In this document: one piece after another, positions 9,690 through 53,155 of the stretch
Layout of the letters: the number at the start of each line of letters is the position of its first letter
Position numbering within the stretch: the first letter of the stretch is position 1
DNA from: a virus
DNA: 64,000 nt
Reading direction: 5' to 3' (one strand)
IMG/VR virus record: IMGVR_UViG_3300017917_004576
Span: 1 to 64,000 of that record
Translations under genes and position numbers: made by a program
Notes under the pieces: model-generated
The model's input: only the letters and a program-made list of their open reading frames with translations
The model's database searches: none
What the model was told of the DNA's origin: nothing

Positions 9690-9691
9690 AA

Positions 9692-9697
9692 GTGTAT
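9692..9697 (+). promoter_or_regulatory. Putative late promoter motif GTGTAT (representative copy)
   Basis: Recurs before gene starts at 9692, 11928, 16919, 27336, 32731, 36308 and 60736. Confidence 0.6.
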
Positions 9698-9743
9698 TAT
9701 TAAAGTAATCAAATAGCATTACTATTACATTAGAAATAAATAT

Positions 9744-11945: not shown

Positions 11946-11972
11946 TAATCAAATCTTTTTGAAAGGTTTATA

Positions 11973-13568: not shown

Positions 13569-13590
13569 ATTCTTATACGGAGAACTAAAA

Positions 13591-14049
13591 ATGGCTCTAA
13601 AACCTGATCGTATCGAACTATTAACAGATATCTCTTTTTTCATGACTACTACAGCAGAGCGCGGTGGTGTTGTTAGCGCTGTAACTTCAACAACTGGTGT
13701 TGGCGTATCTATGGATGATGCCAATGCTGTTGTTGCTTACGCCGCTGTAGCATCTGGCGCAAAGCCAGTAGGTGTTCTACTTAATGATGTTGTAAATCTT
13801 GATCTTACTCGCCAACACATTAATTGGCATAAAGACGAGATGCAGGTCGGTGGCAAAGTAACACTATTGCGCAACGGCCAAGTTACAACAAATATGTTGG
13901 TTACTGGCATCACTCCATCCGCTGGAACAGATGCTTATGTTGGTGCTAGTGGCTTGATCGGTACAAGTAGTACCAATGCTGTTAAAATTGGTCAGTTCTT
14001 AAGCGGCAAAGACACTGACGGCTATGCTAAAGTATCAGTTAACCTATAA
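13591..14049 (+). CDS. Capsid decoration/cement protein
   Basis: 152 aa, Gly/Val/Thr-rich, immediately before the major capsid gene; GGAGA Shine-Dalgarno. Confidence 0.65.
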   Translation: MALKPDRIELLTDISFFMTTTAERGGVVSAVTSTTGVGVSMDDANAVVAYAAVASGAKPVGVLLNDVVNLDLTRQHINWHKDEMQVGGKVTLLRNGQVTTNMLVTGITPSAGTDAYVGASGLIGTSSTNAVKIGQFLSGKDTDGYAKVSVNL

Positions 14050-14072
14050 TTTTCATACACGGAGAAATAAAT

Positions 14073-15083: not shown

Positions 15084-15108
15084 TATCTAACTTTTCACGT
15101 TAACAATT

Positions 15109-15138
15109 TAAGGGTTGGCTCTGCCAGCCCTTATTTTG
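15109..15138 (+). terminator. Rho-independent terminator after capsid gene
   Basis: TAAGGGTTGGC-TCT-GCCAGCCCTTA hairpin followed by TTTT. Confidence 0.7.
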
Positions 15139-15161
15139 TATATATACTAGGACTCTATGCT

Positions 15162-15189
15162 TTGACAAACAAAGGATTTGCTTTATTAT
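15162..15189 (+). promoter_or_regulatory. Sigma70-like promoter of the inserted endonuclease gene
   Basis: TTGACA-N16-TATTAT, then AAGGAG Shine-Dalgarno and ATG 15211. Confidence 0.5.
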
Positions 15190-15210
15190 AAGTAAACACA
15201 AGGAGAAACT

Positions 15211-19228: not shown

Positions 19229-19259
19229 TTTATAATACTGGTAGGTTTGAGGATATTTT

Positions 19260-22139: not shown

Positions 22140-22150
22140 CAGAGATATTT

Positions 22151-36394: not shown

Positions 36395-39300
36395 ATGGCA
36401 CAAGCCTTTAATTTAACCGCACAATTAAATTTGCGTGGACCATCAAATGTTAGGCAAATAGTTTCGGATGTTAAAAAACAACTTGGTACAATTACTGGTG
36501 ATATAAAATTTAATATTGATCCATCAGCAATTAATAATACAACAAAACTTAGTAAATCATTACAACAACTAAGTTCCGACCTATCTTCTGTTTCGTCCAA
36601 CGCTACTGCGGCAGCATCTGCTATTAAAAATTTTGGTCAAAGTATAAATTCTATTAGTAATTCTTCTAATAAATTATCTTCTAATATAAATAAAACAATA
36701 AGTAGTTCTGGTAATTTAGGAACAACAGTAACAAAAACAGCAAAAAATATTTCTGTAGCACGAACAGAGATGGAAGAATTTGGTCGTCAAAGCGCATTAG
36801 CCATTCGTCGTTTTGCTGCATTTAGTGCTGTAACAGGAGTATTTTTTAGTCTTAATAGAGCAATTAATAGCGGATTGAAAAGCTTTATAGAATTTGATAA
36901 AGAATTAGTGCGATTACAGCAAGTTACTGGTCAAAGCGCCGATGGATTAAAAGGACTCCAAGATGAAATTACAAGACTATCAACTGGTCTTGGTGTTAGT
37001 TCTGATAGTTTAATTCAAGTATCATCAACATTAGCTCAGGCAGGATTAAGCGCTAGAGAAACTGAACAGGCCTTAAAAGCATTAGCATTAACAGAATTAG
37101 CGCCTAGTTTTGATGATATTAATCAAACAGTCGAAGGATCTATTGCTCTAATGAGACAGTTTGGCATAGCAGCAAAAGATTTAGAAAAAGCATTAGGTAG
37201 TGTTAATAGTGTTGCAGCAGCTTTTGCTGTTGAGTCTAGCGATATTATTGCGGCTATACAACGAACCGGTGGTGTGTTTGCAACCGCGAGTAAAGGAGTT
37301 AGCGAAGGAGCAGACGCTCTTAATGAATTTATAGCCGTGTTTACTAGTGTTCGTGCCACAACGCGTGAAAGCGCCGAAACAATCGCTACAGGTTTGAGAA
37401 CTATTTTTACACGTATTCAAAGACAAGGTACTATAGAAGCACTCAAAGAATTTGGTGTTACACTGACTGATGCCGAAGGTAAATTTGTTGGTGCATACAA
37501 GGCTGTACAGTTACTTAGCGAAGGATTAAGTAGTATAGATCCTAGAGACATAAGATTTAGCCAAATAGTTGAAGAGCTTGGTGGTTTTCGTCAAATTGGC
37601 AAAGTTATTCCATTGATTCAACAGTTTGCTACCGCACAAGATGCTTTGAGAGTGGCTCAGGCTGGTCAGGGTAGTTTGGCAGCAGATGCTGCTAAAGCAC
37701 AATTAAGTTTAGCCAATCAAATAGCTAAAGTGAGAGAAGAATTTTTAACATTAATTCGTAGTTTGGGACAAAGTGATACTTTTCAAACTTTAGCTAGAGG
37801 AGCATTAACATTTGCTAGTGGTCTTATTAAGATTACAGATGCTGTTAAAGGTGTTTTACCTTCACTTGCTATTTTAGCAGCTGGGGCTAGTTTTAGAGGA
37901 TTAAGTCAATTTACTAGCGGATTTATTGGTGGTTTGAAAAAAGTTCCAAAAGGAGGACCAGGAGCACAACAACCACAAAGCGTGGTTGGTTCTATTGGAA
38001 GAAATATTGGAAGTAGTCTTGTTGGTGCTAAAACAGAACAAGTTAGTAGAGACTTAGATCAAAATAGCGCCGCTCTAGATAAGCTTTCTGGTAAAATAGA
38101 TTCTTTGGTATCTTCAATGTCTTCTATTAATGGCTTAACATCCGGTATAACTGCATTGAATACCAACTTAGTATCTATTAATAGCGCTTTAGCATCATAT
38201 AATTCTGCATTACTAAATAATACCAATGCTTTATCTAGTAATAGTAGCTCTCTAGAGAATGTTTATGCTGCTTTAGTTAATTTAGATGCTACTTTAGATA
38301 GAAAAGATTTCGGAGGCGGTGGACCAACTACTGCTAGTGGTGGTGGTCGTATTTTGGGTTTCTCTAAAGGAGGCAGTGTTCCCGGTAGCGGAAGAGGAGA
38401 TAAAGTACCAGCATTATTAGAACCTGGCGAAGTGGTAATGAGTAATCGAGCTGTTAATAAGTATGGAAGAGGTAATTTGGTTAATATGAATAAAAGATAT
38501 TTTAAAGGAGGTATAGCCCGAGAAAAGCTTCAAACACTAGTTGAAAAAAGCAATAGTATTAAAAAATATATTAATGACACTATCAATCCAGATGATGAAG
38601 CATTAACAAAGATAGTTCCATTTCGTGTTGATCTTGATGATAATGATTTCAGAGAAATGAAACAAATCATGATAGATACTGAAAGGCAAAGACTTAGATA
38701 TTTAGAAACATATCGTGATGATCCCACAGCAAATAAACAAGTGGGACAGAGAGCCAGAAGCAGCAAAGACCCTAGAACAGTTGTTGGATTTCTTGGTCTG
38801 AAAAAACCAGAATCTCATTGGGGTCCAGGTAATGCTTTTCAACAGCATTTAATTAAAAGACTAAATATTTCACCAAGCGATATGCCCCCTAATCTTGGCA
38901 CACCACAAGAACAATTTAAAGATATTATAGACGAACATTATGCTGTTTTAGACTACCAAGACGGTGATGCTAAATTTTGGAAAGATCTAAGTTATTTTGA
39001 TACACAACCCGGAAAAATAGACATACTAAATAAACAATTTAAAAATGTAGTCAATAATAATCAACTAAAACCAAAACCAACCCCAAATTATGAACTTTTT
39101 ACTTTACCGGATACGCGAGTTTATTATCCTGAGATTGGCACAAAAGAACAATTTATGCGAGATTATGCGGCGTTTACCACAGCAGATTATGCAAAAACAC
39201 ATCTTCCAGCAGGAGCTTATTCTATTGGTGGAAAAATTCAAAAATTTGCTGGTGGAGGAGAAGCGCTACAGTCCAAGTTATCAACTATAAGAACTCTTTT

Positions 39301-42300
39301 GGGCGAATTTTATGGAGGTGATGAACAACTTATATCAAAATCAATTTCTAATTCTATGATAATTGATGAGGCTCGTGCTGATAAAATTATTGCTAACTTA
39401 GAATCATCTAGATCACAGTTGCCATTATTTAAAAAACTATTTTCAGAAAAATCGTCTTCTGTTGGTGTTTTAAATGGATTTCCAATAGCCAGGTATGGTG
39501 CTATTGGTGGTACTGAGACTATGAGATTTGATGAACTAAAAGACGAAGAAACTATTAGAGAGTTTATAAAAAGAGGAAAATTAGCAACACAAGCTTCGCG
39601 TGGTCCGGTTGGTAAACGCATAGTTTATGGTGATCAAAAAGCAGCAAGACGAAGGTTTGCGGTTGGCGGAACAGTAGAGGGCATAGCTGCTAAAGAAAAA
39701 AAATCTATTGAAACTGTAATTTTAGAACAATTATCCAGTTTTGGAGATGCTAGCGGAGTTAAAAAAATACTAGGATTAGGAGCTGGAGAAAGAGAGATTA
39801 GCTCTATATTGAATGCTAGTAATATTAGAGCCGGTAAAAACATAGAAAAAGCTATTAAATTTATAAATAGGGCGCTAGCTAAGACAGGAAAACAAGATGC
39901 TGCTAGAGAAGCAAAAGAAGCAGCCATGAGAAAAGTTGCAATTGCCGGATTATTTCCATTAGATTATAATAAAGATTTTTCAGACTGGAAGTTGGAAGAT
40001 GGTAGAGAAATTTATGGTTATGTTAGAGGATTTCAATCTAGCTTTTTACCACAAATAGAAGCTATGCAAGAGGCCAATAGAGCTACTCGTCAAAAATTTG
40101 CTGAAGATATTCAAGATACGGCAGCATTAGGCGGATTAGGTAATAGAAATATTCAGGGGCCAATTCAACCATTAGCAATAGATTTTGATGAAACACTAGC
40201 TCTTGGAACAAAAATGCTAGATGAAAATGGCGAAGAAGATTTACCAGCCTACTCTGATAGAAAAAAAGTTATGGAAAGTCTAGCCCAAGCTAGACCAACC
40301 TCACTAGCTAAAAGATTGGCCAGTATAGAACAAAAAAATCCTGGATATGTTAGGATGTTTAGTCGTATCTTAACGGCCCGTCCTCAAAGTACGGCGGATA
40401 TTATAGCATCAACTCTTAATAGGTTCGGATTACCATATTTAGAACAAGATGTTACTGGAGTTAGTCAAGGACTAGGAACAAATATAGCAAAAGCTAAAGC
40501 CGCTGATGTTGCAAGAGCCGAAAAATTAATCGATGATAATGAAAAAAATATTAGAGCAACAATGGCTGCTGGTAAAAGTACTTTTCGTTATGGTGAAGTA
40601 CCAGAGCTCAAAGGACCAGCAGAAGAAAAATTTGGACAATCTAATATTGAAGGAGGTATGCTAGAAGCAGCATTATCACAATTATTGGGCTATAATATAA
40701 ATGTTGATGCTTTACAAAGAAATAGAGCGATTGATTTTCCTAATGGCCTAGGCAGAGGCGCTCAACTTTTTGGATTACCTCCGAATATTGAAACAGAAGT
40801 AAAAAGAACTTTGGACGGAGACAGTTTTTCAAAAGCCAGAGAAGAATTTAGTAGATACTTTAAAGAAAATCCACAAGCCTTTGCTAAAGGAGGAACAGCA
40901 ACATTTGGTTCTGGAGCATTTAAATTCCCCAAAAGAATAAGTAATGCTTATGTTCGGGAAATGGAAAAATTATTAGAACAAGAACAAATGGAAAAGGTTT
41001 TTTCAACATATCCTGGTAATGAAAGAATGGTTGTGGACGAGGAGGCTGTGAAAAAAGGATATGAATCTCCTTTTACTAGAGAACTATTCATAAATTCGTT
41101 TAAGGATAAAATAAATAGAAATACAGTTTTTGAAAGAATGGGGCAATTTGCGCGAGTTATAGGATTGCCACCCACCGATCTTTTATCTGCAATACCAACT
41201 CAATTAGACTTTGGTGTTAATTATCCTGCTACAGCATTATTTAGCAAGGATCCTTCTGGCCCAGGAACCAGGGGACTACAAGGAGTGGATCTGACACCAT
41301 ATGGTTATACTGAACAAGATAAACAAGATTTATTCGGATATACTAAACTAATAGAAGAAAAAAAGAAACAAATATTAAAAACAATTAAAACTCCTGTTAC
41401 AACATATGAAGATGGTAGTTTTAGCTATGATACGGCTTTAGCAGAAAAACTAAGAGCAGAATTAGACGATTTACAAAAACAACAAAGATCTCTTATTGAT
41501 AAAAACAATGCGGCTATCAAAGCTGCAAAAGAATCCAGACTACAATCCGCAAACCAGAGTGGTCGTGGTAGCGTTGGCATAGCGACGAATCCATTTAATA
41601 CAAGTCAACGTCAAGATTATAGTATTTTGTATCATGAATTAACTCATCAACTTTTTAATAGTCTTAGAACTAAAAACGCTCAATCATTCGAAGCATACAA
41701 GGCAAAAGTTTCTAGTTTATTTAGTGGAAACAATGATGATGTGGCCGATGCTTTTGATGCTCTGGTTGGAAATACAGGATATAATAGTGCTGATGTCGCC
41801 TATGGAAGAAGTTATAAACTTAGTGGACTAAGCAGCTTGATGATAGGATCAGCCAAAGAGTCATTTGCAAAATATGTTAATAGTGATCCAGAATATATTC
41901 CAGAATTAAGAAAAACTTGGGCAGCAACTAATTCTACAACAACCGCCAAAGCTTTTAAACCACTGAATCCTAAAGTTAATGATATTTTATTAAGAGGTAA
42001 AATAAGCCAAGATGTTATAGATAAATATGAAGATAATGGTAAAGAAGAATTTTTAACAACATTAATACAAAAATTACCATTATTAGATGAAAATCTAAGC
42101 GGAGTTTTGGATAGTACTCTGGATGACCTATTGGGAGGTGCTGGAATAAGTAGACAAAAATTTGCTCTCGGTGGATTAGCAGATTCTAAAGATGCTATGT
42201 CTGGATTAATGCAAGGATTATATGGAAATAGAAATCAACAAACAGACAAAAAAGAAAAAGATTTTGGGAAAATAAGCATTACAGAAGATGGCGATATGCT

Positions 42301-45300
42301 TAGTGTTGGATATCTTAAAAATGATAGTAGATCAGGATATGTACAAGCAATGAAATATAAAGATAATCTATGGTATGTTGGATTATCAAAAGCTACTAAA
42401 GGATATGGACCAAGATTGTACGATGTGGCTATGGAGGCTGTTACTGAAAAAGGAGCTATGCTAACTTCTGACAGAAGCATGGTTAGCGCGGATGCTCAAA
42501 AGGTTTGGGCTTATTATTTTAAAAATAGAGGAGATGTTAAAAAAACACCATTAGAACCAGAAAATTGGACTAAAAATCAAGCACTAATAGACCCTAAGCT
42601 TTATGGAAGAAGAGAAACATGGCCACCAGCAACCGATCCGGCTTGGATACTACAGAGCGGCTATAGTAAGAGCCCTACCTTGCTTAATGATCCAGAACAA
42701 GTAAAAAGAAATAATAATAAAGCAAAAAAACCTATTGATTCTAGAAGCATGGCTCTATCATATTTTCAAAGAGCCGATGGCGGACCAATAAGCCGTTTTG
42801 CTGATGGTGGTTCTGTTCCGGCCTTAGTAAGTAACGGCGAAGCTTATGTGCCTCCTAAACTTGCTAAACGTATTGGTTACGGAACACTAGATCGTATGAA
42901 TCAAGCTGATAAAAATGGTATGGGGCGATTTAGTGATGGTGGAATTAGCGTATTTAAGGGACCGGGAAGTGGAACTAGCGATAGCATACCCACAAATCTA
43001 CCAGTAGGAAGTTTTATAATAAGAGAAAAGGCCACTAAAGCACTAGGTTTAAATAGTGGTGGTATTGTTGGAATAAGAAGATTTAAAGACGGTGATAAGG
43101 TTTCTTATGGAAGAAAAGACACAACTGGTATTCGGATGCCCATGCCTGATCTTGGATTTCTAAAGACAAGCGCAATATTATTAGTAGATAGCTTTAGAAC
43201 TACAGAACAAATGATAAGTAATAGCTATTCAGCCTGGCAAGAGATAGACAAAGTGGCTCCGATTTTAGCAAAGACTTTAGATAGATATTATAGTACTATC
43301 GATGCAACATTAGATGATGCTAGTTTGATGGTGCAAAGCTACCGTGCAGTAGTCGTGTCTTTGGCTAAACAAGGAAAAACAACGGCAGAAGTTGATGCTA
43401 TAATGACTCATTATATTGATGCTCTAAATAAAGCAATAGATACATATCAAAATCCTGCCCCTATAGAGTCTCCAAAATCAACAACAACATATACAGTTAC
43501 TCCACCACGCCCTCGTCGCAGAAACAGATCTTCTTTATCACCAACCCCACCTCCCGTACCCAAATCTGCCGAGCAAAAACTAGCAGCAGTAGAAAACGAA
43601 GCAATTGCTCAAAGAATAGAGTCAAAAGAAAGAATCAAATCAGAATATGACCCATTATACAGAGCAGCATCGTCCAGAGAAGATAAGCAAGCGATACAAG
43701 ATGAAGCTAGGCTAAAATTTCAAGCTGTTGATGCTACCATACAGGCCAATAAAGCTGCTCAACAACAAATAATACTACAAGAACTATTGGCTCAAAGAGC
43801 TAAAGAAGCTAATCAATCCACAGAAGAATATATATCTGGGTTACAACAAGAAATTGATACTAGATCAATCAATATTATGGAGCAAGATTTTAGCAATGTA
43901 CTAGGACCAGATGTGCCGTCCACACAAGAAGCAAGACAACAAGCACTTAGCGAGACTATTAGATCTAGAGGACTACAAGCATTTGATGTGACTGATCTAG
44001 GACAAGGCACCAATATAAAAGATATAATATCACAAATTTCCGAAACAAAAAATAAGGCCCAGGCTGCTGCCACAGCGAACGATTATTTGGCTTTGAGAGC
44101 AAGACTAGCCGGACAAAGTCTTGAGGAATATTCTCAGTCATTATCTGATCAGGCTTTAAATTTAGCTGAACAATTTAAGAATAATCTTCCTAGAGCTTTA
44201 GATAGTTTTCAAGAACAATTATTTGATGCTAAACAAAGTCTTGAAAATATAAGCGCTAGAGAAGCAAAAGGAGAATATGCTAATCAAGAAGGACAAGAGA
44301 GAAAAGCTATAGATATTTCACAACTAGAAGAAAGTATAGGAGATACTCTTGAAAATATTCTAGGAGAAAATTTTTCTGGAGATGATAGAAATAAAATATT
44401 ACAAGATATTATGGAAAAGCTAAAAAATGCTGATTCAACACAAGCTTTTAATGTTCAAAGTCTTTCCGACGCTATAAAACAAATATCAACCGATGAAGCA
44501 ATAGCTTCAAGAGCAACAGCAACAGTCGCTGCCCAAAATAAAATACAACCAAATCAAATTACAGGAGCTACAGCAGAAGCTCTAAAATCCAGAGGAGAAA
44601 CTCAACAACTATTTAAGGAAATCGATAAAATATCTGCAAAATTTAGTAAATTTGGTTTAGCTATAGGAGCTGCTGGTAGCGTTATAGCTAAATTTATAGA
44701 TGCAACAGAAAGTAGAAGTGCAGCGATGGCAGCGGCAGCAATTTCTGGTGGCACATCCACAGCTTCCACGCTAGCAGTTGGTGTTGGACAAGGTCTTCAA
44801 ACTTTAAAAGATTTATCTGATCCTAAAGGATTATTTGGTAACACTGGTATAGGAAAATTGGCTGGATCAGTATTGCCTGGTCTCAAAGAAGTATTGACCG
44901 GTCCTTTCGGAATAATTGCTGGGGCGGGGATCTCTTTAGCAGCAGCTTTTAAAGATGCTTACAATGCGGCACGAGAATTTGATAAGCAGCTAAATACTAA
45001 AACTGTTGAAAATAGTTTGAGTAAAGTTGGCACAATGTTTGATCAGTTTGGTAAAGATATGAGTCAGAAAGATTTGCTTGGAGATATCAGCAAAGAATTA
45101 AACACTGCTATATCAGCCGCTATGAAAAATATTAATATCGATGCCACTGTACCAAAAATGTTTTGGGTTAATATGATAGATGCTGCTATGGGCGGAAGCG
45201 AAGCTGCTCAACGAAGTATAGTTCTTGAAAAACAAGGAGTTGGTGCTTATTTTAATACTATTATGCCAGGAGGGAATCAGCAGTTGGAATCGTATATGTC

Positions 45301-48300
45301 CGATCTTGCTCCACAATTAGCATCCCAACAATCTGCTTCCCTAAAACCAGCTGCTGAAAACGCATTTAGATTATTTGAGCAACAATTACGAACAGGAAGT
45401 TCGTCAGATGACATAATGGATCAACTTAAAACAGCAGGAGGAGGAGTATCACAATTTGCCACAGCTATTGCTCGTTCTAATCCTATTATAGAAGAACAAA
45501 TTATTAAAACTCAAGCACGAGCAGATATAAGCGATACCGAGAAACAAAAAATTGTTGATAGTATAATTGCTAGAGAAGCAGAAAAACAAACTATACTAAA
45601 TACCACAGCAACTCTTAGACAAATAGAATTTGAAAAATTAAATAAGGGAACAGACTCATTTGTTAATAGTTTGGAAAGAATCTATAGCAATATGGAAATG
45701 AGTATAAATAAGGCTAGTTTCGATATTCAAAAACTATCAGCAAGTGCCGATCTTGCATCAGAAGCTTTGAGTGGAAATGCTAAAGCCGGACAGATTAATT
45801 TAGAAGCTATTAATGTATTACAAAATAGAAGAGCATATTCACCAGAACAACAAAATCAAGCTGTTGACTTAGCTGGATCTTTTTTTGGATCAACTAGTCC
45901 CGCTATATCATCAATACTTAATATTGGAGATAAATTAGAAAGTACTATTTTACAAACCATCAATAGAACACGCGGTGCCGAGCCAGGAGCAACCAACGAA
46001 CGAGTATTGGCCAGTATAAGATCAGCTCTTGATAGACAACTAACCGATTTACAAATACCAGATAGTCTGGTTCCATCCATTAGCAATCAAATAAGGGATG
46101 CTCTCAAAGACATATCAACACAAGGAGATCTAGATACTGTTAATTTTAATGAAATAGCAGAAAAAGTTCCGGCGCTAACCAAACAAATTGATGCTGCTAG
46201 ACGAGCACAAGAAACTGCTGTTAGAGCATTAGAGTTTTATCAATCTCAATTAAATGAGTATGCTAATGCTATGAATAGTATGGTAGAGTTGCAATTTAAT
46301 GCTAGTAAAGATTTTGCTAGAGCATCGGATATTATAAGTAGCTCATCTGATGAATTATCTAAAGCTTTTGGTAGAGAAATTAGCTTGAGAGATACTTTAA
46401 CACAGTCTTTGGGTAAAACACGAAGACAAACAGGAGGAGCAACAGATCCTGTTGATATATCTAGAAATATTACAAATTTAGAAAATTCTAGAAAAATTTT
46501 ACAAGGAGCTTCGGAGACCGCCGCAGCAAAAGGACCAGCTGCTCAAGACGAATTTAAAATCATGCAAGATAGGCTTCGCAATAATAATTTGGCATTACGA
46601 CAAAATTTCGATGCTCTAAAAAATTTAGCAGATAGTAGTGAAATAGCTAGCGCTGCATTAAATAAAATACAAGAAATTCAACAAAGAAGACAGGCCGGTG
46701 CTAATCTTATCGAAAAACTTGTAACATCTAGTCCAGAAGAAATTAATAAACTTAATAGTGCCATAGCTAGATTACAAAATAATATGATGGGAGTTGCTAA
46801 TGTTGGAACCACAAGCGAACAGCGAGGAGAGAGTCTACAAGCATTTAATATGATAGCTCCATTATTAGGAGAAGGAGCTAAACAAAATGAATTAAGAGCT
46901 AATGTGCTAGAAAGTATGTTGCTTGAAAGCGGACAGGGCGTCAACCCAATGTTTGCACAAGTTTTAGATAGTTTACGAAATCCGGAAGGTGATCCGGAGA
47001 TGCAAGAGGCTATTAGCGTCTATAAAGAAGGCGTTAATTTACAAGCTAGTGCAAATTCTAGACTTGGCGAAATTAAACAATTAATGTTGGAAAATACAGC
47101 AGATGCTGCTGCCGAGAAATTAAAAGTTGCTATGCAAGGAGTAAAGTTTACATTTGAAGAAACAGTATTAAGTGATATTAGATCAGAAATTATTAACTTA
47201 AAGAAGTTGGTTGAGAAAAGAGGACCCGCTGCTGCTGGATTAGCAAATGGCGGAATAGTTTATGCTAGTAATGGAAGAATGATTGATTTTCAATCTAAAG
47301 GCACAGATACTGTACCAGCTATGTTAACGCCAGGAGAGTTTGTTGTAAATAGAGCCTCAACAAAACGCAATCTTCCATTATTACAAAGTATAAATAAAAA
47401 TAAGGGAGGTAAAGTTAATTATTTAGCCGATGGTGGGATTGTGCCTGGTTTTGGTTGGTCAAATAGAAAAACAGAAACTGAATTACGAAGAAATAGAACA
47501 GATACCGACCTAGAGACCCAGGATAGATTTATGGTTTTTCAAGACGATAAAGATCCTACATCAAGGAATGATAATTTTAAAGAATATATTATTGGACCAG
47601 CAGTATCATATAAACAAGGACCAATCCCGGAAGAAAAAATTACAGGCGGCGAGTTGAAAAATCTCTCGGTATTGCAAAACAGTACTAGAATACATAATGA
47701 TACTCCTGGTTTTTTTCTCAAGACTATAAAAACCTTTTATTCTGGTAGTTCAGACGAATATGGGCGCACAGCACTCCCGATTGTTTTGAAATCTGACAGC
47801 TCTATATCTGAAGAATTTAGAAGAGGTCTTAAAAATATTACATTATTTCAAAAACCAGAAATAATATCAAAGCAGAAACGCTTGGTCATGCCACAAATTG
47901 AAAAATATAAAGAATATTATTCTAAATTAATTACTAAGCTAGATAATAATATTAATTTTAAAGATATTATCGAAAATACTCCAAAAGACACATCAGATGT
48001 TAGCATTAAATTAAATAATAGTACTCCGTATAATGTTGAGACTACGATAGATAATTTATCTAGTATTTCTAAAGATAAAAAATATTTATTGGATTCTAAT
48101 ATTAATGATTTTGTAAAGGATGCTCTGTATCCTTTATTTACTCCAGGATCCACAGTTCCAGCAGGATGGACAGTTAATAATAAAGACTATTCTAATAGTA
48201 AAGATTTGGCCTCTAAGATCAAACCAGAAATACTTCCAAAAGACTACGATCTGATTGATATTGTTAAAGAAAATTTAGACCGTTTAAAAAGAATAGATAT

Positions 48301-51300
48301 TAATAATCCTAGATTTTTTCAAGAAACACAAGGATCACAAAATAGAAAAGAAAATGTCAGTTTATTAAAAGATTTTTATGACGGTAAACTATTTTCGATA
48401 CAATTGGATGATTCTGTTTTAGATGGGGAAAAAGCTAAAGGTAAATCTTTACCATTAACTTTATATAATATAAATAATGAACAAGATTGGTTAGATAAAA
48501 TTAGAAATTATCAAGATGAATTAGACAAGATTGATCCGGAAATGCTTTCCAAAACCCTTCCTATCAATCCTACTAATTTTATTAGATTAGATGATAAAAT
48601 AAATAGAAGTAGTAAGATTTTTCCATGGACAGGAAAGGATTTTAATAGTATAACTAAAATTGATTCAGAAAACTTTGTAAAAGATTCAAGAGGATCTTTC
48701 TTAAAAAACCAGTATTTCGGACCCATAACAACAGAAAACCAAGGAGACGAAAAATCTGGCTTGATGTTTCCTTATAAAATAGTTTCTAAAGGAACGACAT
48801 ATGATGAGTCTATAAGAGGTTTTGATCGGCCTTTAGAAAAGTACATGGTAATATCTTCTGATACAAAAAATGAAACAGCACCCTTCGCTAATTTAACTAA
48901 ATCACTTTATATTCCCGCTACTAATTGGGATGATTTTATCATAGATCTTAAATCACAAATAGAGGCTAATCAAAAAGATCCGACTACTGGATATGATTTT
49001 AATTATGCTTTTAATCCTGTTAATTCAGATTTAAATAAATATATGTCAGCCCCTGACATTAGACAAGCGCAAGAAAACCATGCTATTGTACCATCAACAG
49101 ACGGTACTTTGAATGTAAATGATATATTTTTTAGAAATCAAGCTTATTCTGATTTTCTAAATAAAAAAGAAGCAGAAGAAGCCCAAAGTAAAGCTATAGA
49201 TAGTGCAAAGAAAAAATTTAGAGTAACACTAGAAGATACAGAAGCTTTTACAAACGCTAAAAAAGTTGGCGTTGCACGAGCACTATTTGATATTGGCAAA
49301 AAGCAACTAGGACTAACATCATCAAAACCAACTAATTTGGATGGTGTTCGCTCTGTTATATCGGAATTGAGTCAGAAAGCAACACAGTTGTCTAAAAACT
49401 TCTCTAAAGCAGCTCCAAATCAAAGAATTACTAATCCACAGTGGTTAATGAATGATGCTTATAGAGCATTTTTTGTAGAATTATATAAAGGACAATACTC
49501 TGGCAAAGACGATGATACTCCTCAATTTTTGAAAGGATTAGGATTGCCAATAGATGATGCTGATTTTGGTCCCGGAGCAAACCCTATCGATGTTCCTGGT
49601 TTTAGAGGCAAAAAAGAGTCACCATATCGAGACTATAATGCAGCCGCTTTAGGTCGAGCTCAAACTGCTATTAAAAATATTATTAATCGAGAAATAGCAA
49701 TGAAAAGCGGAACCGCTTTTGCTGGAAAATTAAGCGATGAAGATAAACAAAAACTTAAAATTAGTAGTTCAGATGCTAGAATCTATAAGGAAGGTAGTGA
49801 TACTTTTTATCAGCCGGGCGAAGATATTGTACCTAAGTCATATCAACAAGTTGCTGAAATTGGATTAAATCCAAGAAATGTATTTCCTACCGAAACTTTT
49901 AGAAGTGATAACTATTTAAATGCTTTACAGGAATTATATAAAACAGGAACGGATCAAAATGGAAATCTTGTATTCAATTATGGAGATCCGTCAGCCTTAA
50001 CAGCAGCTAAAAGTATTGATATATTAAAAAATTGGTATACAAATTATCAGGATAAATATTTAAATTTAGGAGCAGATTTTGCAGAATCTCAAGTATCCTT
50101 ACAGGACGCAGCAACACAAGCAGATCTTAATGCTTACAAAGAATCAACAGCCCAGCCAGCTCATGCTTTTTTGACAGGAAATAAATACGGAGTATTACCC
50201 GATAGTAATCGTTTATTAGATCAAATTCAACTAGAGATCAAGGAACCAATTAAGAGAGCAAGAGGTGGATTAATATATGCCTCGAATGGAACATTGGTAA
50301 ACTTTCAACCAAAAGGAACCGATACTGTTCCTGCTATGCTAACTCCTGGCGAATTTGTTGTAAATAGAGCAGCAACACAGAAAAATTTACCATTATTACA
50401 GAGTATTAACAGCGGTAAATATGCAAATGGAGGTGTTGTATATGCTCAGAATGGAGGCAGTATTAGGTCTCAAAGTTTTTCTTCAGGTGACGATGATAGC
50501 GAGACAATAAATGCTATTTATACTGTGACCAAGGCAACTCTTTCTGGAAATAATAGATTAAATCAATTAATTATTTTGACTAATGATATTATTAAAAATC
50601 TTCAAGCTCTAATAGACACTAATAGTTATCTTATTCCTATTAATAGTAATGTACAAGATCTTACTAGTTATATAAAAACAATAGATTTTTGCTGCAGAGA
50701 TTCTGTATCATCTTCTGAAGATAGACCTAAGGATGTACAGGATTCAGCACCAGAAGGATCAGGAGAACCACCACAGATACCTCGTCCAGTTTGGTTAGAT
50801 GAATTAAATAATATTCCAAAACCATCTTGGCTGCCTATTAATATGGAGCCTAATTATCCAGAGTGGTTGCCTATTATAATAGATAGACCAATTTGGCTCG
50901 ATGAGCTAACCAATTTAAATAAAACCATCACAATAGAGCCAAGTTTTGAGATTCCTATTCCATTAGAAAAATTTGGTTGTTGTAAAGATGAAACTGGTCA
51001 ATCCATAACCCCATTACCTAGATATCCAGAAGATCCTAATCAACCTATTACTCCATTACCAACAGTTAAGCCACCCATCTTTGCGGAGTCTTCGTATCAG
51101 CCTGGAGAAAAACAATTATCTGCTAAAGATTTTCCATATGATATAGATGTTCCGAAACAAATAGACATCGCTCCTGCTATGCCGTCCAGAAATAGTAGGA
51201 TGGACGATGTTGACGAAAGACTAGGCGTTAATACGCCAGAACAAAGTAGAAGATATTGGGCAGAAGAAGAACGGGCAGTAGATGACCGTAAAAGAGTAAG

Positions 51301-53155
51301 AGAAGAAACCAATACGAATAGGGCTTCAAGATCATTGGATGTTCTTAAAGGGACAGTTGGGGCAAAAGATGCTGCATATTCAACTATAGAGACTATACAA
51401 GCATTACAAGAAGGTAGAGGATTGGACGCTGCGATTGGTGGTTTATCTATGATTGAAAATATTAGTAATATTAGTCCATTAAAAATGGGACCTGTTGGTG
51501 ATATTGCTGGTATAGCGGGATCGGCGACAAACATTGCAAGGGGCATATATGAAGCTACTGGTGGAAATTTTGACAGACTACAGGAACAAGGACTTAGTGA
51601 TGCATTAAACATAGCACAAAACACATCCTCACTAGCTGGAACAACAGGATTATCAAAAAATTTAGGAATCGCTGGAGTTGTTTTACAAACTGGCAAAGAT
51701 GTTTATGAAGAGATTACTTCTACGCCAGATACTGTTGATGCTCAACAAAGAGGTATAGTAGAACGAGGTCTTTTAGCAGCTACCACAGGAAGCGGAGATG
51801 TTGGAGGATCAGATTTAGCAAAACTAGTAGGTTTTGAGCGGGATAGTTCTGCAGATATCATGGCTGCTTATTATGAGAATGTATTAAGTAAAACAGCACA
51901 AGGGGCAACGGTTGGTGGTGTTCCAGGAGCTATAGTTGGATTAAGCACAGCTACCGCTGGAGAGGTTTATAAAGCAGGATCTGGTCTTGCAAGAGATACA
52001 TCTGTCGCTAGAGAATCTCAGGCCAAAACAGATAGAATGTTAGAAGAAAGCAAAACCAAAGAATATGTAGTGGACGACCAGGGGCTTTTAACCCAAGTAG
52101 ATAAAAAATCAGATGATTGGAGTATGGGCATAGATATAAGCACAGAATCAGCTATTAAAGAAGTGGCTATACTTCAGGATAGAATACAAGAACTTGAATC
52201 TGCTCAAAATACGGGATCCTTAAGCTATGATAATCAGGATATAGCATCAGCAATATCGCTAGAACAAGAAAAACTAGGCTTAGCACAACAAAGATTACAG
52301 AATCTAGCCGTTCAACAAGTAGATCAAGAGAATTGGACATTCTCCGAGCTCGGTACAGATAGTCCAGAAGTTAAAGCTAGATTAGACGAATTTAATAGTA
52401 GATTAGCAGCAGCAATAGATCAACTTGGTTTAGACATAGTAAATAATTTGGATCAAGCCAAATTAGAACAACCTGTTACCAAAAACAAAGGAGGATTGAT
52501 TTATGCTAGTAATGGAACATTAGTTAATTTTAGACCAAAAGGAACAGATACCATACCAGCCATGTTAACTCCTGGTGAATTTGTTATAAATAGAAATTCA
52601 ACACAAAAATATAGACCAGTATTAGAAGCTATCAACAATGGTAATTACAATAGAGGCGGAATAGTTAATTATCTTAATAAGGGTGGATATATTCCAGAAT
52701 ATAAATTTATTGGTGGATTAATGGGATCTGCAGGATCTGCTATCCCATCCTTTGATTTTACTAAATATCTGAATAGTCTGGTTGGATCTATTAGTAGTAG
52801 TATAACAGAAGCTTTCGATAAAGCAGTATCTAGCCTAAAACAACCAAACAATGCTGCTGGTGGTGTATCTAATAACGGGGCCGATCTTACTAGTATTGAT
52901 AATTTTGTTAATAGATTAAATAATATTGCTAATATACTTAGTAATATTTATATACCACCACAAATTACTATAACAGGAAAACATGATGTTGTTGTCACAA
53001 TTAATGGAGATACAGTATTGAATCAATTGCGTCCGGATATAGCCGGAATAGTTATATCTGCTATTAGAGGGGCGTTTGCGGATCTTAAAGCAAAAAATCC
53101 AGAAAATAATACTATTGATTTTAATATAGATATAGATCCTAGAAGATTTACATAA
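36395..53155 (+). CDS. Giant tape measure protein (5586 aa) with multiple cargo domains
   Basis: N-terminal tape-measure core (EFDKELVRLQQVTG...LAQAGLS...RESAETIATGLRTIFTRI); repeated GG/GTDTVPAMLTPGEFVVN blocks; HAD, HExxH and GNAT-like motifs. Confidence 0.88.
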   Translation: MAQAFNLTAQLNLRGPSNVRQIVSDVKKQLGTITGDIKFNIDPSAINNTTKLSKSLQQLSSDLSSVSSNATAAASAIKNFGQSINSISNSSNKLSSNINKTISSSGNLGTTVTKTAKNISVARTEMEEFGRQSALAIRRFAAFSAVTGVFFSLNRAINSGLKSFIEFDKELVRLQQVTGQSADGLKGLQDEITRLSTGLGVSSDSLIQVSSTLAQAGLSARETEQALKALALTELAPSFDDINQTVEGSIALMRQFGIAAKDLEKALGSVNSVAAAFAVESSDIIAAIQRTGGVFATASKGVSEGADALNEFIAVFTSVRATTRESAETIATGLRTIFTRIQRQGTIEALKEFGVTLTDAEGKFVGAYKAVQLLSEGLSSIDPRDIRFSQIVEELGGFRQIGKVIPLIQQFATAQDALRVAQAGQGSLAADAAKAQLSLANQIAKVREEFLTLIRSLGQSDTFQTLARGALTFASGLIKITDAVKGVLPSLAILAAGASFRGLSQFTSGFIGGLKKVPKGGPGAQQPQSVVGSIGRNIGSSLVGAKTEQVSRDLDQNSAALDKLSGKIDSLVSSMSSINGLTSGITALNTNLVSINSALASYNSALLNNTNALSSNSSSLENVYAALVNLDATLDRKDFGGGGPTTASGGGRILGFSKGGSVPGSGRGDKVPALLEPGEVVMSNRAVNKYGRGNLVNMNKRYFKGGIAREKLQTLVEKSNSIKKYINDTINPDDEALTKIVPFRVDLDDNDFREMKQIMIDTERQRLRYLETYRDDPTANKQVGQRARSSKDPRTVVGFLGLKKPESHWGPGNAFQQHLIKRLNISPSDMPPNLGTPQEQFKDIIDEHYAVLDYQDGDAKFWKDLSYFDTQPGKIDILNKQFKNVVNNNQLKPKPTPNYELFTLPDTRVYYPEIGTKEQFMRDYAAFTTADYAKTHLPAGAYSIGGKIQKFAGGGEALQSKLSTIRTLLGEFYGGDEQLISKSISNSMIIDEARADKIIANLESSRSQLPLFKKLFSEKSSSVGVLNGFPIARYGAIGGTETMRFDELKDEETIREFIKRGKLATQASRGPVGKRIVYGDQKAARRRFAVGGTVEGIAAKEKKSIETVILEQLSSFGDASGVKKILGLGAGEREISSILNASNIRAGKNIEKAIKFINRALAKTGKQDAAREAKEAAMRKVAIAGLFPLDYNKDFSDWKLEDGREIYGYVRGFQSSFLPQIEAMQEANRATRQKFAEDIQDTAALGGLGNRNIQGPIQPLAIDFDETLALGTKMLDENGEEDLPAYSDRKKVMESLAQARPTSLAKRLASIEQKNPGYVRMFSRILTARPQSTADIIASTLNRFGLPYLEQDVTGVSQGLGTNIAKAKAADVARAEKLIDDNEKNIRATMAAGKSTFRYGEVPELKGPAEEKFGQSNIEGGMLEAALSQLLGYNINVDALQRNRAIDFPNGLGRGAQLFGLPPNIETEVKRTLDGDSFSKAREEFSRYFKENPQAFAKGGTATFGSGAFKFPKRISNAYVREMEKLLEQEQMEKVFSTYPGNERMVVDEEAVKKGYESPFTRELFINSFKDKINRNTVFERMGQFARVIGLPPTDLLSAIPTQLDFGVNYPATALFSKDPSGPGTRGLQGVDLTPYGYTEQDKQDLFGYTKLIEEKKKQILKTIKTPVTTYEDGSFSYDTALAEKLRAELDDLQKQQRSLIDKNNAAIKAAKESRLQSANQSGRGSVGIATNPFNTSQRQDYSILYHELTHQLFNSLRTKNAQSFEAYKAKVSSLFSGNNDDVADAFDALVGNTGYNSADVAYGRSYKLSGLSSLMIGSAKESFAKYVNSDPEYIPELRKTWAATNSTTTAKAFKPLNPKVNDILLRGKISQDVIDKYEDNGKEEFLTTLIQKLPLLDENLSGVLDSTLDDLLGGAGISRQKFALGGLADSKDAMSGLMQGLYGNRNQQTDKKEKDFGKISITEDGDMLSVGYLKNDSRSGYVQAMKYKDNLWYVGLSKATKGYGPRLYDVAMEAVTEKGAMLTSDRSMVSADAQKVWAYYFKNRGDVKKTPLEPENWTKNQALIDPKLYGRRETWPPATDPAWILQSGYSKSPTLLNDPEQVKRNNNKAKKPIDSRSMALSYFQRADGGPISRFADGGSVPALVSNGEAYVPPKLAKRIGYGTLDRMNQADKNGMGRFSDGGISVFKGPGSGTSDSIPTNLPVGSFIIREKATKALGLNSGGIVGIRRFKDGDKVSYGRKDTTGIRMPMPDLGFLKTSAILLVDSFRTTEQMISNSYSAWQEIDKVAPILAKTLDRYYSTIDATLDDASLMVQSYRAVVVSLAKQGKTTAEVDAIMTHYIDALNKAIDTYQNPAPIESPKSTTTYTVTPPRPRRRNRSSLSPTPPPVPKSAEQKLAAVENEAIAQRIESKERIKSEYDPLYRAASSREDKQAIQDEARLKFQAVDATIQANKAAQQQIILQELLAQRAKEANQSTEEYISGLQQEIDTRSINIMEQDFSNVLGPDVPSTQEARQQALSETIRSRGLQAFDVTDLGQGTNIKDIISQISETKNKAQAAATANDYLALRARLAGQSLEEYSQSLSDQALNLAEQFKNNLPRALDSFQEQLFDAKQSLENISAREAKGEYANQEGQERKAIDISQLEESIGDTLENILGENFSGDDRNKILQDIMEKLKNADSTQAFNVQSLSDAIKQISTDEAIASRATATVAAQNKIQPNQITGATAEALKSRGETQQLFKEIDKISAKFSKFGLAIGAAGSVIAKFIDATESRSAAMAAAAISGGTSTASTLAVGVGQGLQTLKDLSDPKGLFGNTGIGKLAGSVLPGLKEVLTGPFGIIAGAGISLAAAFKDAYNAAREFDKQLNTKTVENSLSKVGTMFDQFGKDMSQKDLLGDISKELNTAISAAMKNINIDATVPKMFWVNMIDAAMGGSEAAQRSIVLEKQGVGAYFNTIMPGGNQQLESYMSDLAPQLASQQSASLKPAAENAFRLFEQQLRTGSSSDDIMDQLKTAGGGVSQFATAIARSNPIIEEQIIKTQARADISDTEKQKIVDSIIAREAEKQTILNTTATLRQIEFEKLNKGTDSFVNSLERIYSNMEMSINKASFDIQKLSASADLASEALSGNAKAGQINLEAINVLQNRRAYSPEQQNQAVDLAGSFFGSTSPAISSILNIGDKLESTILQTINRTRGAEPGATNERVLASIRSALDRQLTDLQIPDSLVPSISNQIRDALKDISTQGDLDTVNFNEIAEKVPALTKQIDAARRAQETAVRALEFYQSQLNEYANAMNSMVELQFNASKDFARASDIISSSSDELSKAFGREISLRDTLTQSLGKTRRQTGGATDPVDISRNITNLENSRKILQGASETAAAKGPAAQDEFKIMQDRLRNNNLALRQNFDALKNLADSSEIASAALNKIQEIQQRRQAGANLIEKLVTSSPEEINKLNSAIARLQNNMMGVANVGTTSEQRGESLQAFNMIAPLLGEGAKQNELRANVLESMLLESGQGVNPMFAQVLDSLRNPEGDPEMQEAISVYKEGVNLQASANSRLGEIKQLMLENTADAAAEKLKVAMQGVKFTFEETVLSDIRSEIINLKKLVEKRGPAAAGLANGGIVYASNGRMIDFQSKGTDTVPAMLTPGEFVVNRASTKRNLPLLQSINKNKGGKVNYLADGGIVPGFGWSNRKTETELRRNRTDTDLETQDRFMVFQDDKDPTSRNDNFKEYIIGPAVSYKQGPIPEEKITGGELKNLSVLQNSTRIHNDTPGFFLKTIKTFYSGSSDEYGRTALPIVLKSDSSISEEFRRGLKNITLFQKPEIISKQKRLVMPQIEKYKEYYSKLITKLDNNINFKDIIENTPKDTSDVSIKLNNSTPYNVETTIDNLSSISKDKKYLLDSNINDFVKDALYPLFTPGSTVPAGWTVNNKDYSNSKDLASKIKPEILPKDYDLIDIVKENLDRLKRIDINNPRFFQETQGSQNRKENVSLLKDFYDGKLFSIQLDDSVLDGEKAKGKSLPLTLYNINNEQDWLDKIRNYQDELDKIDPEMLSKTLPINPTNFIRLDDKINRSSKIFPWTGKDFNSITKIDSENFVKDSRGSFLKNQYFGPITTENQGDEKSGLMFPYKIVSKGTTYDESIRGFDRPLEKYMVISSDTKNETAPFANLTKSLYIPATNWDDFIIDLKSQIEANQKDPTTGYDFNYAFNPVNSDLNKYMSAPDIRQAQENHAIVPSTDGTLNVNDIFFRNQAYSDFLNKKEAEEAQSKAIDSAKKKFRVTLEDTEAFTNAKKVGVARALFDIGKKQLGLTSSKPTNLDGVRSVISELSQKATQLSKNFSKAAPNQRITNPQWLMNDAYRAFFVELYKGQYSGKDDDTPQFLKGLGLPIDDADFGPGANPIDVPGFRGKKESPYRDYNAAALGRAQTAIKNIINREIAMKSGTAFAGKLSDEDKQKLKISSSDARIYKEGSDTFYQPGEDIVPKSYQQVAEIGLNPRNVFPTETFRSDNYLNALQELYKTGTDQNGNLVFNYGDPSALTAAKSIDILKNWYTNYQDKYLNLGADFAESQVSLQDAATQADLNAYKESTAQPAHAFLTGNKYGVLPDSNRLLDQIQLEIKEPIKRARGGLIYASNGTLVNFQPKGTDTVPAMLTPGEFVVNRAATQKNLPLLQSINSGKYANGGVVYAQNGGSIRSQSFSSGDDDSETINAIYTVTKATLSGNNRLNQLIILTNDIIKNLQALIDTNSYLIPINSNVQDLTSYIKTIDFCCRDSVSSSEDRPKDVQDSAPEGSGEPPQIPRPVWLDELNNIPKPSWLPINMEPNYPEWLPIIIDRPIWLDELTNLNKTITIEPSFEIPIPLEKFGCCKDETGQSITPLPRYPEDPNQPITPLPTVKPPIFAESSYQPGEKQLSAKDFPYDIDVPKQIDIAPAMPSRNSRMDDVDERLGVNTPEQSRRYWAEEERAVDDRKRVREETNTNRASRSLDVLKGTVGAKDAAYSTIETIQALQEGRGLDAAIGGLSMIENISNISPLKMGPVGDIAGIAGSATNIARGIYEATGGNFDRLQEQGLSDALNIAQNTSSLAGTTGLSKNLGIAGVVLQTGKDVYEEITSTPDTVDAQQRGIVERGLLAATTGSGDVGGSDLAKLVGFERDSSADIMAAYYENVLSKTAQGATVGGVPGAIVGLSTATAGEVYKAGSGLARDTSVARESQAKTDRMLEESKTKEYVVDDQGLLTQVDKKSDDWSMGIDISTESAIKEVAILQDRIQELESAQNTGSLSYDNQDIASAISLEQEKLGLAQQRLQNLAVQQVDQENWTFSELGTDSPEVKARLDEFNSRLAAAIDQLGLDIVNNLDQAKLEQPVTKNKGGLIYASNGTLVNFRPKGTDTIPAMLTPGEFVINRNSTQKYRPVLEAINNGNYNRGGIVNYLNKGGYIPEYKFIGGLMGSAGSAIPSFDFTKYLNSLVGSISSSITEAFDKAVSSLKQPNNAAGGVSNNGADLTSIDNFVNRLNNIANILSNIYIPPQITITGKHDVVVTINGDTVLNQLRPDIAGIVISAIRGAFADLKAKNPENNTIDFNIDIDPRRFT

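Follow-up and report, generated by a model that had tools for sequence, protein, structure and literature searches.

How might a phage use a tape measure protein (TMP) of 5,586 amino acids (aa)? The question is raised by a stretch of viral DNA of 64,000 nucleotides (nt) – positions 1 to 64,000 of the IMG/VR record IMGVR_UViG_3300017917_004576, here called the window – in which a single uninterrupted open reading frame (ORF; 36395..53155, plus strand) encodes such a protein, P0001. TMPs are usually treated as rulers or channel formers carrying, at most, a cell-wall hydrolase. We consider it likely that this one has also become a carrier of exchangeable protein cargo, with cassettes fenced by short conserved joints, and that its tail probably brings preformed enzymes along into the host. 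Among related phages, cassettes are inserted, deleted, replaced and reordered at these joints, and at least two of the cassettes are predicted to have enzyme-like folds.

A tape measure protein and its giant relatives

On sequence grounds the ORF is a genuine tail TMP, because aa 189-384 match the Pfam family PF10145 (PhageMin_Tail) with 81.7 bits against a cut-off of 33.2 (expectation value (E) 8e-23), because the N-terminal segment (first ~640 aa) matches 14 PHROG families at E≤0.01, 11 of them annotated as tape measure, because a phage structural module lies upstream (TerL 7662-9689, portal 9744-11945, tail fibres 17627-26200), and because a conserved block of ~60 aa, described below, recurs in all 120 listed giant relatives.

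The search for relatives was restricted to proteins of 3,072-9,776 aa; 1,116 candidates were scored, and 183 relatives spanning that whole range were found at the cut-off of E≤0.001. The 120 listed proteins, spanning 3,075-7,872 aa, are the basis of the family counts below, and counts for single parts of the protein refer to the 119 relatives listed among the 183. PF10145 is present in 101 of the 119 listed relatives. A hidden Markov model (HMM) of the block matches all 120 proteins with 2-10 copies each, the last copy lying at a median of 162 aa from the C-terminus. Giant TMPs with cassettes are, by these matches, a large uncultured family.

Joints, blocks and the layout of the chain

An earlier, sequence-only reading of this DNA had named 18 pentapeptides ending in Gly–Gly (GG) and five copies of a longer D(T/K/S)(V/I)P block. 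All 18 are present in the GG listing of the protein, and the blocks start at nt 38399, 42980, 47306, 50321 and 52547, at most 2 nt from where that reading had put them. The pentapeptides lie at the following positions of the window, each number giving the place of the GG:

FSKGG 38369, YFKGG 38507, YSIGG 39227, FAGGG 39251, FAVGG 39665, FAKGG 40889
FALGG 42170, RADGG 42779, FADGG 42806, FSDGG 42938, LNSGG 43058, LANGG 47249
LADGG 47432, RARGG 50264, YANGG 50429, KNKGG 52490, YNRGG 52655, LNKGG 52682

These motifs exceed chance. GG occurs 48 times, against 30.8±5.2 in 2,000 shuffles (a count of 48 was reached in 0.2% of them), and [FY]xxGG 12 times, against 2.0±1.4 with a shuffle maximum of 8. 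Across the family, 1,714 copies of [FY]xxGG compare with 285 expected, and 1,543 of xAxGG with 495 expected. Around the family's GG pairs, F/Y is over-represented 6-8.5 times at position -3 and V 7.9 times at +2, and residues -4, -3, -2, +1, +2 and +3 are under selection, giving a joint consensus – [KR][FY]AxGG[VLI][VI][YPQ] – that is defined on both sides of the GG.

The long block consists of a joint, a core of ~45 aa (G..D-T-V-P-A-M-L-T-P-G-E-F-V..N....L..I-N) and one or two further joints. Joints are often paired, nine residues apart, as in YSIGGKIQKFAGGG here and YATGGVVQRFVDGG in the relative P0076. Blocks 3, 4 and 5 are 56-61% identical to one another (E 5e-27 to 2e-32); block 1 shares 29-40% identity with blocks 3-5 (E 1.5e-5 to 3e-4) and block 2 shares 34% with block 1 (E 0.005). 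A sixth, degenerate half-copy (SVPALVSNGEAYV) lies at ~42812. In a piecewise self-BLAST similarity was confined to the blocks, which bears out the claim that the segments between the motifs are unrelated.

The block is also a feature of ordinary TMPs, as had been assumed in taking a single GG block near the C-terminus to be common: it was found at 214 places in 192 records of a phage collection – about once per TMP, and mainly in Gordonia, Mycobacterium, Brevundimonas and Nodularia phages – and its PHROG matches fall near the C-termini of TMP profiles. By this comparison, the 5,586-aa protein has amplified an element of which ordinary TMPs have about one copy. The profile of the block had no significant match in the PDB, and a complex prediction with three block copies gave a score of 0.02, which is no answer and counts as evidence neither way.

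The resulting layout is listed below from N- to C-terminus. Values of i-E are independent E values of the block HMM; HSPs are high-scoring segment pairs between the protein and its relatives, and tracts are stretches of high DNA identity with related contigs.

36395..38308 (+): N-terminal TMP core, aa 1-638; PF10145 and PHROG TMP families; covered by ~100-105 of the 119 relatives
38336..38512 (+): block 1, aa 648-706; FSKGG ... DKVPALLEPGEVV ... YFKGG; i-E 2e-19
38513..39217 (+): cassette B, aa 707-941; variable; in 6 of the 119 relatives; replaced in P0004 and L001
39218..39259 (+): double joint YSIGGKIQKFAGGG, aa 942-955; high-identity tract of L005/L008 begins at aa 944
39260..39655 (+): cassette C, aa 956-1087; variable; in 3 of the 119 relatives
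39656..39670 (+): joint FAVGG, aa 1088-1092; tracts of 92-94% nt identity in L001/L002/L004 begin at aa 1088/1091; 33 HSP ends in aa 1080-1109
39671..40879 (+): cassette D, aa 1093-1495; predicted HAD phosphatase-like core plus a C-terminal D...(E/D)xK motif
40880..40894 (+): joint FAKGG, aa 1496-1500; 59 HSP ends in aa 1490-1509
40895..42160 (+): cassette E, aa 1501-1922; conserved HExxH module
42161..42175 (+): joint FALGG, aa 1923-1927; homology with P0004, P0008, P0009, L005, L006 and L008 stops at aa 1927/1928
42176..42766 (+): cassette F, aa 1928-2124; predicted GNAT-fold module; absent in P0004, L005 and L008, replaced in P0002 and P0008
42767..43102 (+): block 2, degenerate, aa 2125-2236; RADGG, FADGG-SVPALVSNGEAYV, FSDGG-DSIPTNLPVGSFI, LNSGG; i-E 3e-6
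43103..44641 (+): G1, aa 2237-2749; variable; covered by 5-24 of the 119 relatives
44642..47239 (+): G2, aa 2750-3615; most conserved central part; in 105 of the 119 relatives
47240..47437 (+): block 3, aa 3616-3681; i-E 1e-29; 67 HSP ends at aa 3680-3689
47438..50254 (+): cassette H, aa 3682-4620; in 26 of the 119 relatives at 22-47% identity; always C-terminal of G
50255..50458 (+): block 4, aa 4621-4688; i-E 7e-33; 51 HSP ends at aa 4680-4699
50459..52480 (+): cassette I, aa 4689-5362; rare, in 8 of the 119 relatives; absent in P0004, replaced in P0002
52481..52687 (+): block 5, aa 5363-5431; i-E 6e-30; 70 HSP ends at aa 5350-5369
52688..53152 (+): C-terminal piece J, aa 5432-5586; conserved, in 45 of the 119 relatives

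We propose that this chain combines three conserved parts – an N-terminal core of TP901 type, the central hydrophobic and helical G2, and a C-terminal tip piece, J – with two cargo zones. Zone 1 (aa 707-2124) would hold cassettes B, C, D, E and F and zone 2 (aa 3682-5362) cassettes H and I, each cassette being fenced either by a short joint, [KR][FY]AxGG[VLI][VI], or by the ~60-aa block with a joint at each end. The strongest hydrophobic segment of the protein lies around aa 2841, inside G2 (Kyte-Doolittle 19-residue mean 1.71).

Exchange of cassettes at the joints

The proposal that cargo is swapped at the motifs finds support at several levels. Conservation along the protein falls directly after each block and each short joint. 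Among 964 ends of HSPs of at least 150 aa, drawn from the 119 relatives, 51% fall no more than 10 aa from a GG (14% expected) and 23% no more than 10 aa from [FY]xxGG (4.2% expected), with peaks at FAVGG, FAKGG, FALGG, LADGG, YANGG/AQNGG and KNKGG. As HSP ends are not independent events, the pairwise cases weigh more. In P0004, which has neither cassette F nor cassette I, FALGG (aa 1927) is joined directly to block 2 (aa 2129); L005 and L008 likewise lack cassette F, the gap running precisely from FALGG to FADGG/RADGG; in P0002 and P0008 other inserts take the place of cassette F; and L013 is without both E and F.

Cleaner evidence of exchange than the HSP ends comes from nucleotide mosaics. 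Tracts of 92-95% nt identity, seen in six near-identical viral contigs, stop at aa 648, 944, 1088/1091, 1927/1928, 2138 and 2234/2235, and beyond these ends the DNA is 70-81% identical or unrelated. The order of cassettes also changes: E precedes D in P0022, P0059, P0028 and P0076, and P0036 has the order E, F, D. When the 120 listed proteins are cut at their joints and blocks, 1,436 segments of at least 70 aa fall into 321 single-linkage families, 202 of which are singletons. Position relative to G is kept almost throughout this shuffling, cassettes D (158/158), E (78/78) and F (71/72) lying N-terminal of it and cassettes H (101/101) and I (15/15) C-terminal. The segments are thus swapped, deleted and reordered among relatives, rather than invariant.

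Breakpoints that coincide with the motifs are also what would be seen if the motifs were only recombination hot spots or scars in the DNA, with no role in the protein. This account, already disfavoured, seems to us very improbable: the GG codons differ among joints (GGAGGC, GGTGGA, GGCGGA and others), the DNA of blocks 3-5 is 70-74% identical with longest exact runs of 12-18 nt, the residues flanking the GG are selected, and the block is conserved in distant TMPs, that of lambda included. Since the codons vary and the exact runs are so short, the joint motif is kept at the protein level, and the joints, not being simple DNA homology patches, make better sense as protein elements that tolerate or require insertions. 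Of the earlier idea of a recombination joint, the exchange at joints therefore stands, whereas homology of the DNA at the joints is ruled out by the varied codons and short runs.

What the cassettes contain

The earlier reading had taken the segments to be effectors, and structure prediction for two of them recovers enzyme-like folds, HAD for D and, with middling scores, GNAT for F; E keeps an HExxH motif. The chain is therefore predicted to hold three activity-type modules.

Cassette D was modelled with AlphaFold2 from a 7-sequence alignment; its core (residues ~167-308) reaches a predicted local distance difference test score (pLDDT) of 72-95. Foldseek returned five matches at E≤0.001, and its rows are almost exclusively HAD phosphatases, the top one at E 3.7e-4 with a probability of 1.00; the leading rows are AphA (at that E), phosphoserine phosphatase, the HAD domain of Legionella Lem4 and the phosphatase of T4 Pnkp. 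HAD phosphatases are marked by motifs I (DxDxT), II (S/T), III (K) and IV (DD). Across 78 copies of cassette D, the residues of motif I are kept in 78 (D), 78 (D) and 77 (T), the T/S of motif II and the K of motif III in all 78, and the DD of motif IV in 77 and 78; the downstream D...(E/D)xK motif is kept in 77-78. No curated HAD profile was matched in Pfam at E≤1 by any of 7 members, and no PDB profile was matched. Cassette D models as a HAD phosphatase-like fold.

Cassette F models as a putative GNAT fold (AlphaFold2 pLDDT 74, predicted template modelling score 0.71). The best 50 rows of the VIA comparison are all acyl-CoA N-acyltransferase-type entries, with Z-scores of 5.7-7.7, and include the anti-CRISPR acetyltransferase AcrVA5; the profile of the cassette had no significant match in the PDB. 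The acetyl-CoA-binding glycine motif of GNAT proteins reads Q/R-x-x-G-x-G/A, and in cassette F a G-x-G-P-x-L-Y-D after the central strands is invariant in 9/9 aligned copies. Domains of the F type extend beyond the giant proteins. An HMM search of 1.84 billion representatives yielded 2,100 clusters at E≤0.001; nearly all of the strongest matches are giant proteins, and many of the weaker ones are free-standing proteins of ~170-240 aa. Ten F-type proteins (174-377 aa) gave no significant Pfam match (one was weak, at E 0.047), and nine of the ten had no PHROG match. A word-indexed search for free-standing F genes found 2 small proteins, both on short contigs, and a scan of viral contigs with the F-type protein P0169 gave no match.

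In cassette E, the H, E and H of HExxH are each present in 47/47 copies, as are the glutamates of a downstream GKEEF. Neither Pfam nor PDB profiles (two alignments were compared with the PDB) gave a significant match, and the single-member hints, DUF4932 (E 0.08) and Peptidase_M78 (E 0.22), are not significant. The best ESM Atlas score, 0.83, is a lead only, and the Atlas lead to an LPD23-bearing cluster scored 0.81, below the tool's own threshold. Cassette I, whose translation shows two Cys-Cys pairs, repeated P-x-W-L units and a long Gly/Ala-rich stretch, is an observation apart.

Relatives also carry recognised domains. An ADP-ribosyltransferase (PF03496) lies at aa 1538-1653 of P0076, between joints at 1246 and 1674/1683, and another at aa 1156-1370 of P0111, ending at a joint; precomputed Pfam labels of relatives also include SNase and EF-hand domains. 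In the models, the flanks around the joints have low confidence (residues 1-26 and 181-201 of F, 1-10 and 401-408 of D).

If the inserts were inert filler that lengthens the ruler, and their enzyme-like motifs relics, it would be no surprise that family databases recognise none of D, E or F: searches of ten segments of the protein against Pfam (E≤1) and PHROGs (E≤0.01) matched only the TMP core and the block. Yet the catalytic-type residues counted above, in D and in the HExxH of E alike, are held across cassette copies of 30-97% identity, and relatives carry ADP-ribosyltransferase domains at Pfam level, so that we give the filler explanation very little credence.

A possible route out of the tail

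The cargo reading implies a path. The chain would be held metastable in the tail lumen, with its C-terminus at the tip – J may sit there by analogy with T5 and lambda – and would be expelled ahead of the DNA. Given that orientation, zone 2 would leave first and meet the envelope; G2 would come next and help to form a channel; and the zone 1 enzymes would leave last, beside the end of the DNA, to act in the cytoplasm. The joints would be flexible linkers that mark domain borders, and their most likely further role would be that of maturation sites of T5 or lambda type.

Are the joints cut?

Two cultured phages bear on this last step; statements on published systems here and below follow the accessible portions of the cited papers. 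In T5, the TMP pb2 is cut after R1127 (Linares et al. 2023, PMC10038345) and matured to pb2* and pb2C, the latter staying in the tail (PMC10038345). Of the only 5 GG in pb2, one begins three residues after R1127; the site, VPR|AEGGMMYPG, has the form x-A-x-G-G-hydrophobic-hydrophobic-Y, like RARGGLIY and RADGG here. The cut in pb2 comes after a hydrophobic stretch and detaches an enzyme module, with a muralytic metallopeptidase motif, whose expulsion into the host has been proposed (PMC10038345). T5, with 1,219 aa, has one cut and one small enzyme module, whereas here there are ~10 cassettes and 16 joints. In lambda, gpH is matured to gpH* and gpHC, a peptide of ~14 kDa being cleaved from a glycine-rich region (PMC12617516). 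Directly after that region, aa 732-782 of gpH read HFATGG ... HRGEFVF ... GYATGG, and of these residues 752-782 are recognised by the block HMM (i-E 4.6e-6, with two sequences searched). Lambda makes do with one block and carries no enzyme cargo, whereas here the block is amplified five-fold and fences inserts.

Together, these cases make the joints plausible TMP maturation sites. That at least some of them are cut in this way we rate, by analogy, at a little under an even chance; that all of them are cut is, on the same analogy, distinctly less likely.

In its full form, cutting would make the protein a true polyprotein, with every joint and block cleaved at tail assembly and some ten polypeptides stored in the lumen and released in turn. 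The T5 cut three residues before a GG, with pb2C remaining in the tail, speaks for it, as do the lambda block adjoining the cut region, the keeping of the motif at the protein level and in low-confidence linkers, and a consensus well defined on both sides of the GG. But lambda and T5 each make one cut; the catalyst is given as unknown even in lambda (PMC12617516); the only protease-like cassette, E, occurs in 60/120 proteins, against 120/120 for the blocks; and a ruler cut to pieces before polymerisation of the tube ends could not measure length, so that any cutting would have to come late. We find the polyprotein doubtful. Cassette E was considered as a general processing protease and rejected, because an enzyme present in only half of the listed family cannot serve all of its blocks.

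A more specific version is tentative to the same degree: the amplified block would be a self-contained maturation module, used a single time by lambda and T5, and each copy would direct a T5-type cut between the -3 residue and the -2 Ala of xAxGG, turning the lumen into an ordered magazine of ~10 separate proteins. From such a magazine, envelope-acting pieces would emerge first, then the channel former, and then the phosphatase/nuclease-, metallopeptidase- and acetyltransferase-like enzymes ahead of the DNA – a sequence that we hold possible rather than probable. If it were true, phages would re-arm by swapping cassettes at the joints.

Conversely, the chain might stay uncut and tethered, its joints and blocks being hinges or docking sites for the tube lumen, an assembly chaperone or the tip. 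All 5,586 residues would then rule a very long tail, and the cassettes would work while attached. The block does occur in TMPs of many cultured phages without reported multiple processing, and a structural role is suggested by the regular double joint, whose GG pairs are spaced nine residues from each other (YSIGGKIQKFAGGG; YATGGVVQRFVDGG in P0076). The T5 cut, though, falls in a joint-like site, and the giant TMP gp96 of Thermus phage P23-45, compared below, has neither block nor joint excess nor BLAST similarity and hence offers no model for joints. On balance we find an uncut chain as doubtful as the polyprotein.

A cultured isolate may help here. The Nodularia phage vB_NspS-kac65v151 (L052) has a TMP of 3,282 aa (6349-16197) in which the block lies well inside the chain (aa 867-916 and 956-985), a long way from the C-terminus, with two [FY]xxGG against 0.3 expected; this cyanophage is a possible tractable isolate for testing cutting at the block.

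Weight of the evidence

Several points weigh against the exchangeable-cargo reading and its proposed route. We infer the ejection, the order of exit, the compartment reached and any cutting. The HSP ends come from relatives that share ancestry, and conserved blocks beside variable DNA pile up such ends by construction; the nucleotide mosaics are drawn from six loci only, with four patterns among them, and the tract end at aa 2234/2235 lies 11 aa past the nearest GG. As to contents, cassettes D, E and F are without a Pfam, PHROG or PDB sequence match; the model of D has a mean pLDDT of only 59.5, with its C-terminal part unmodelled; and for F the Z-scores are all below 8, the tool's line for caution, in a range that it calls middling, while Foldseek gave nothing at E≤0.001 (best E 0.029). 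The likeness to T5 spans only ~9 residues, and the block HMM does not detect pb2; the exact cut site in lambda is, like its catalyst, stated to be unknown (PMC12617516); and the single cut of each phage is not many cuts. The closest cultured phage by TerL shares at most 25% identity.

With these points counted, we still favour a TMP that carries exchangeable cargo: the exchange at joints is seen in proteins and in DNA, and the catalytic-type residues are invariant across divergent copies.

Genome setting and cultured relatives

Upstream of the TMP gene lie ORFs of 95 aa and 302 aa with no informative matches. The proteins encoded directly downstream, of 1,186 aa (53157-56717, +) and 858 aa (56730-59306, +), are probable distal tail or receptor-binding components, in which an FGE-sulfatase-like domain (aa 860-1014, E 1e-9) and an fn3 domain were detected. 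Further upstream, within the structural module, a 566-aa homing/HNH endonuclease is encoded at 15211-16911 (+; phrog_3339, E 3e-62). The adjacent fibre genes at 19260-22139 and 22151-26200 (+) have a fibre module of ~75 aa in common (phrog_2631, 454 and 7032; E 1e-25 to 1e-29), at different positions: aa ~511-585 in the first and ~72-145 in the second.

The G+C content of the window is ~30-37%, ranging over 28-39% outside its first 2 kb (1-2000), where it is 46% and the GC skew is negative; these 2 kb may be a different module or an insert. No tRNAs were found in the window.

The block also turned up in Synechococcus myovirus Bellamy (L053), where gene 12 (6841-9240), labelled 'hypothetical protein' among baseplate hub genes, matches it with 38% identity (E 3e-4); this is probably the unannotated tape measure of a T4-like cyanomyovirus.

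Implications

The ruler would here serve as a delivery rack for many interchangeable enzyme-like modules, in at least 183 proteins and with 321 cassette families in the 120 listed. If so, siphovirus tails would inject a variable protein arsenal besides DNA, which would widen the polyvalent-protein idea, discussed below, from heads to tails. The conserved joint would be a testable candidate for the TMP maturation site, mapped in T5 (PMC10038345) and given as unknown in lambda (PMC12617516). Joints would also show where a virion protein naturally tolerates insertions, a help in reading the cargo repertoires of metagenomes, and the hundreds of unannotated cassettes would supply candidates for enzymes of host takeover or anti-defence.

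Comparison with known systems

TMPs with embedded hydrolases, the maturation of T5 and lambda TMPs, the P23-45 fusion and the concept of polyvalent proteins are already known; in the literature searched, no description was found of a TMP as an exchangeable cassette array fenced by an amplified conserved joint.

Embedded hydrolases are the most familiar case. The TMP of mycobacteriophage TM4 reportedly contains a cell-wall hydrolase motif that acts at infection, and YomI of SPbeta is a TMP with an embedded cell-wall hydrolase motif. Proteins of this type have one or two peptidoglycan-directed motifs, whereas the array described here is phosphatase-, acetyltransferase- and metallopeptidase-like, is exchanged at defined joints, and consists of modules that look cytoplasm-directed. 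In MARTX toxins and in polymorphic toxins such as CdiA (with its VENN motif), conserved delivery parts flank a recombining effector array and short conserved motifs mark the variable starts; MARTX toxins are cut by a cysteine protease domain dedicated to this task. Both kinds are toxins secreted by bacteria, not virion proteins, and have no known sequence relation to this TMP.

Polyvalent proteins combine 2-15 disparate domains in one polypeptide, among them ADP-ribosyltransferases, GNATs, zincin-type peptidases and nucleases (Iyer et al. 2017, PMC5512222). Such proteins show extensive mosaicism; they are predicted to enter the host along with the DNA, and embedded peptidases may process them (PMC5512222). 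The TMP resembles them in having several disparate predicted activities in one chain. Their anchors, by contrast, are head-packaged proteins; in the accessible text of that paper the term 'tape measure' has 0 occurrences, and the description given there is without a conserved GG joint (PMC5512222). Their hallmark domains (LPD, MuF, MPTase and others) gave no Pfam match at E≤1 on the ten segments of the TMP.

Another parallel is gp96 of Thermus phage P23-45, a TMP of 5,002 aa with an active virion RNA polymerase fused in its N-terminal part (Chaban et al. 2024, PMC10770324), which its authors propose to act beside the TMP pore while DNA enters (PMC10770324). As a member of the present family gp96 was considered and rejected: it has no block, 2 [FY]xxGG against 1.7 expected, and no BLAST match at E≤1e-3. 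Lacking block and joint excess, it is not a model for the joints. It is nonetheless a giant TMP that delivers an enzyme, and one whose enzyme is N-terminal, as zone 1 is here, which matches the exit proposed for zone 1. Where P23-45 has one fixed enzyme, the protein described here would carry an exchangeable array.

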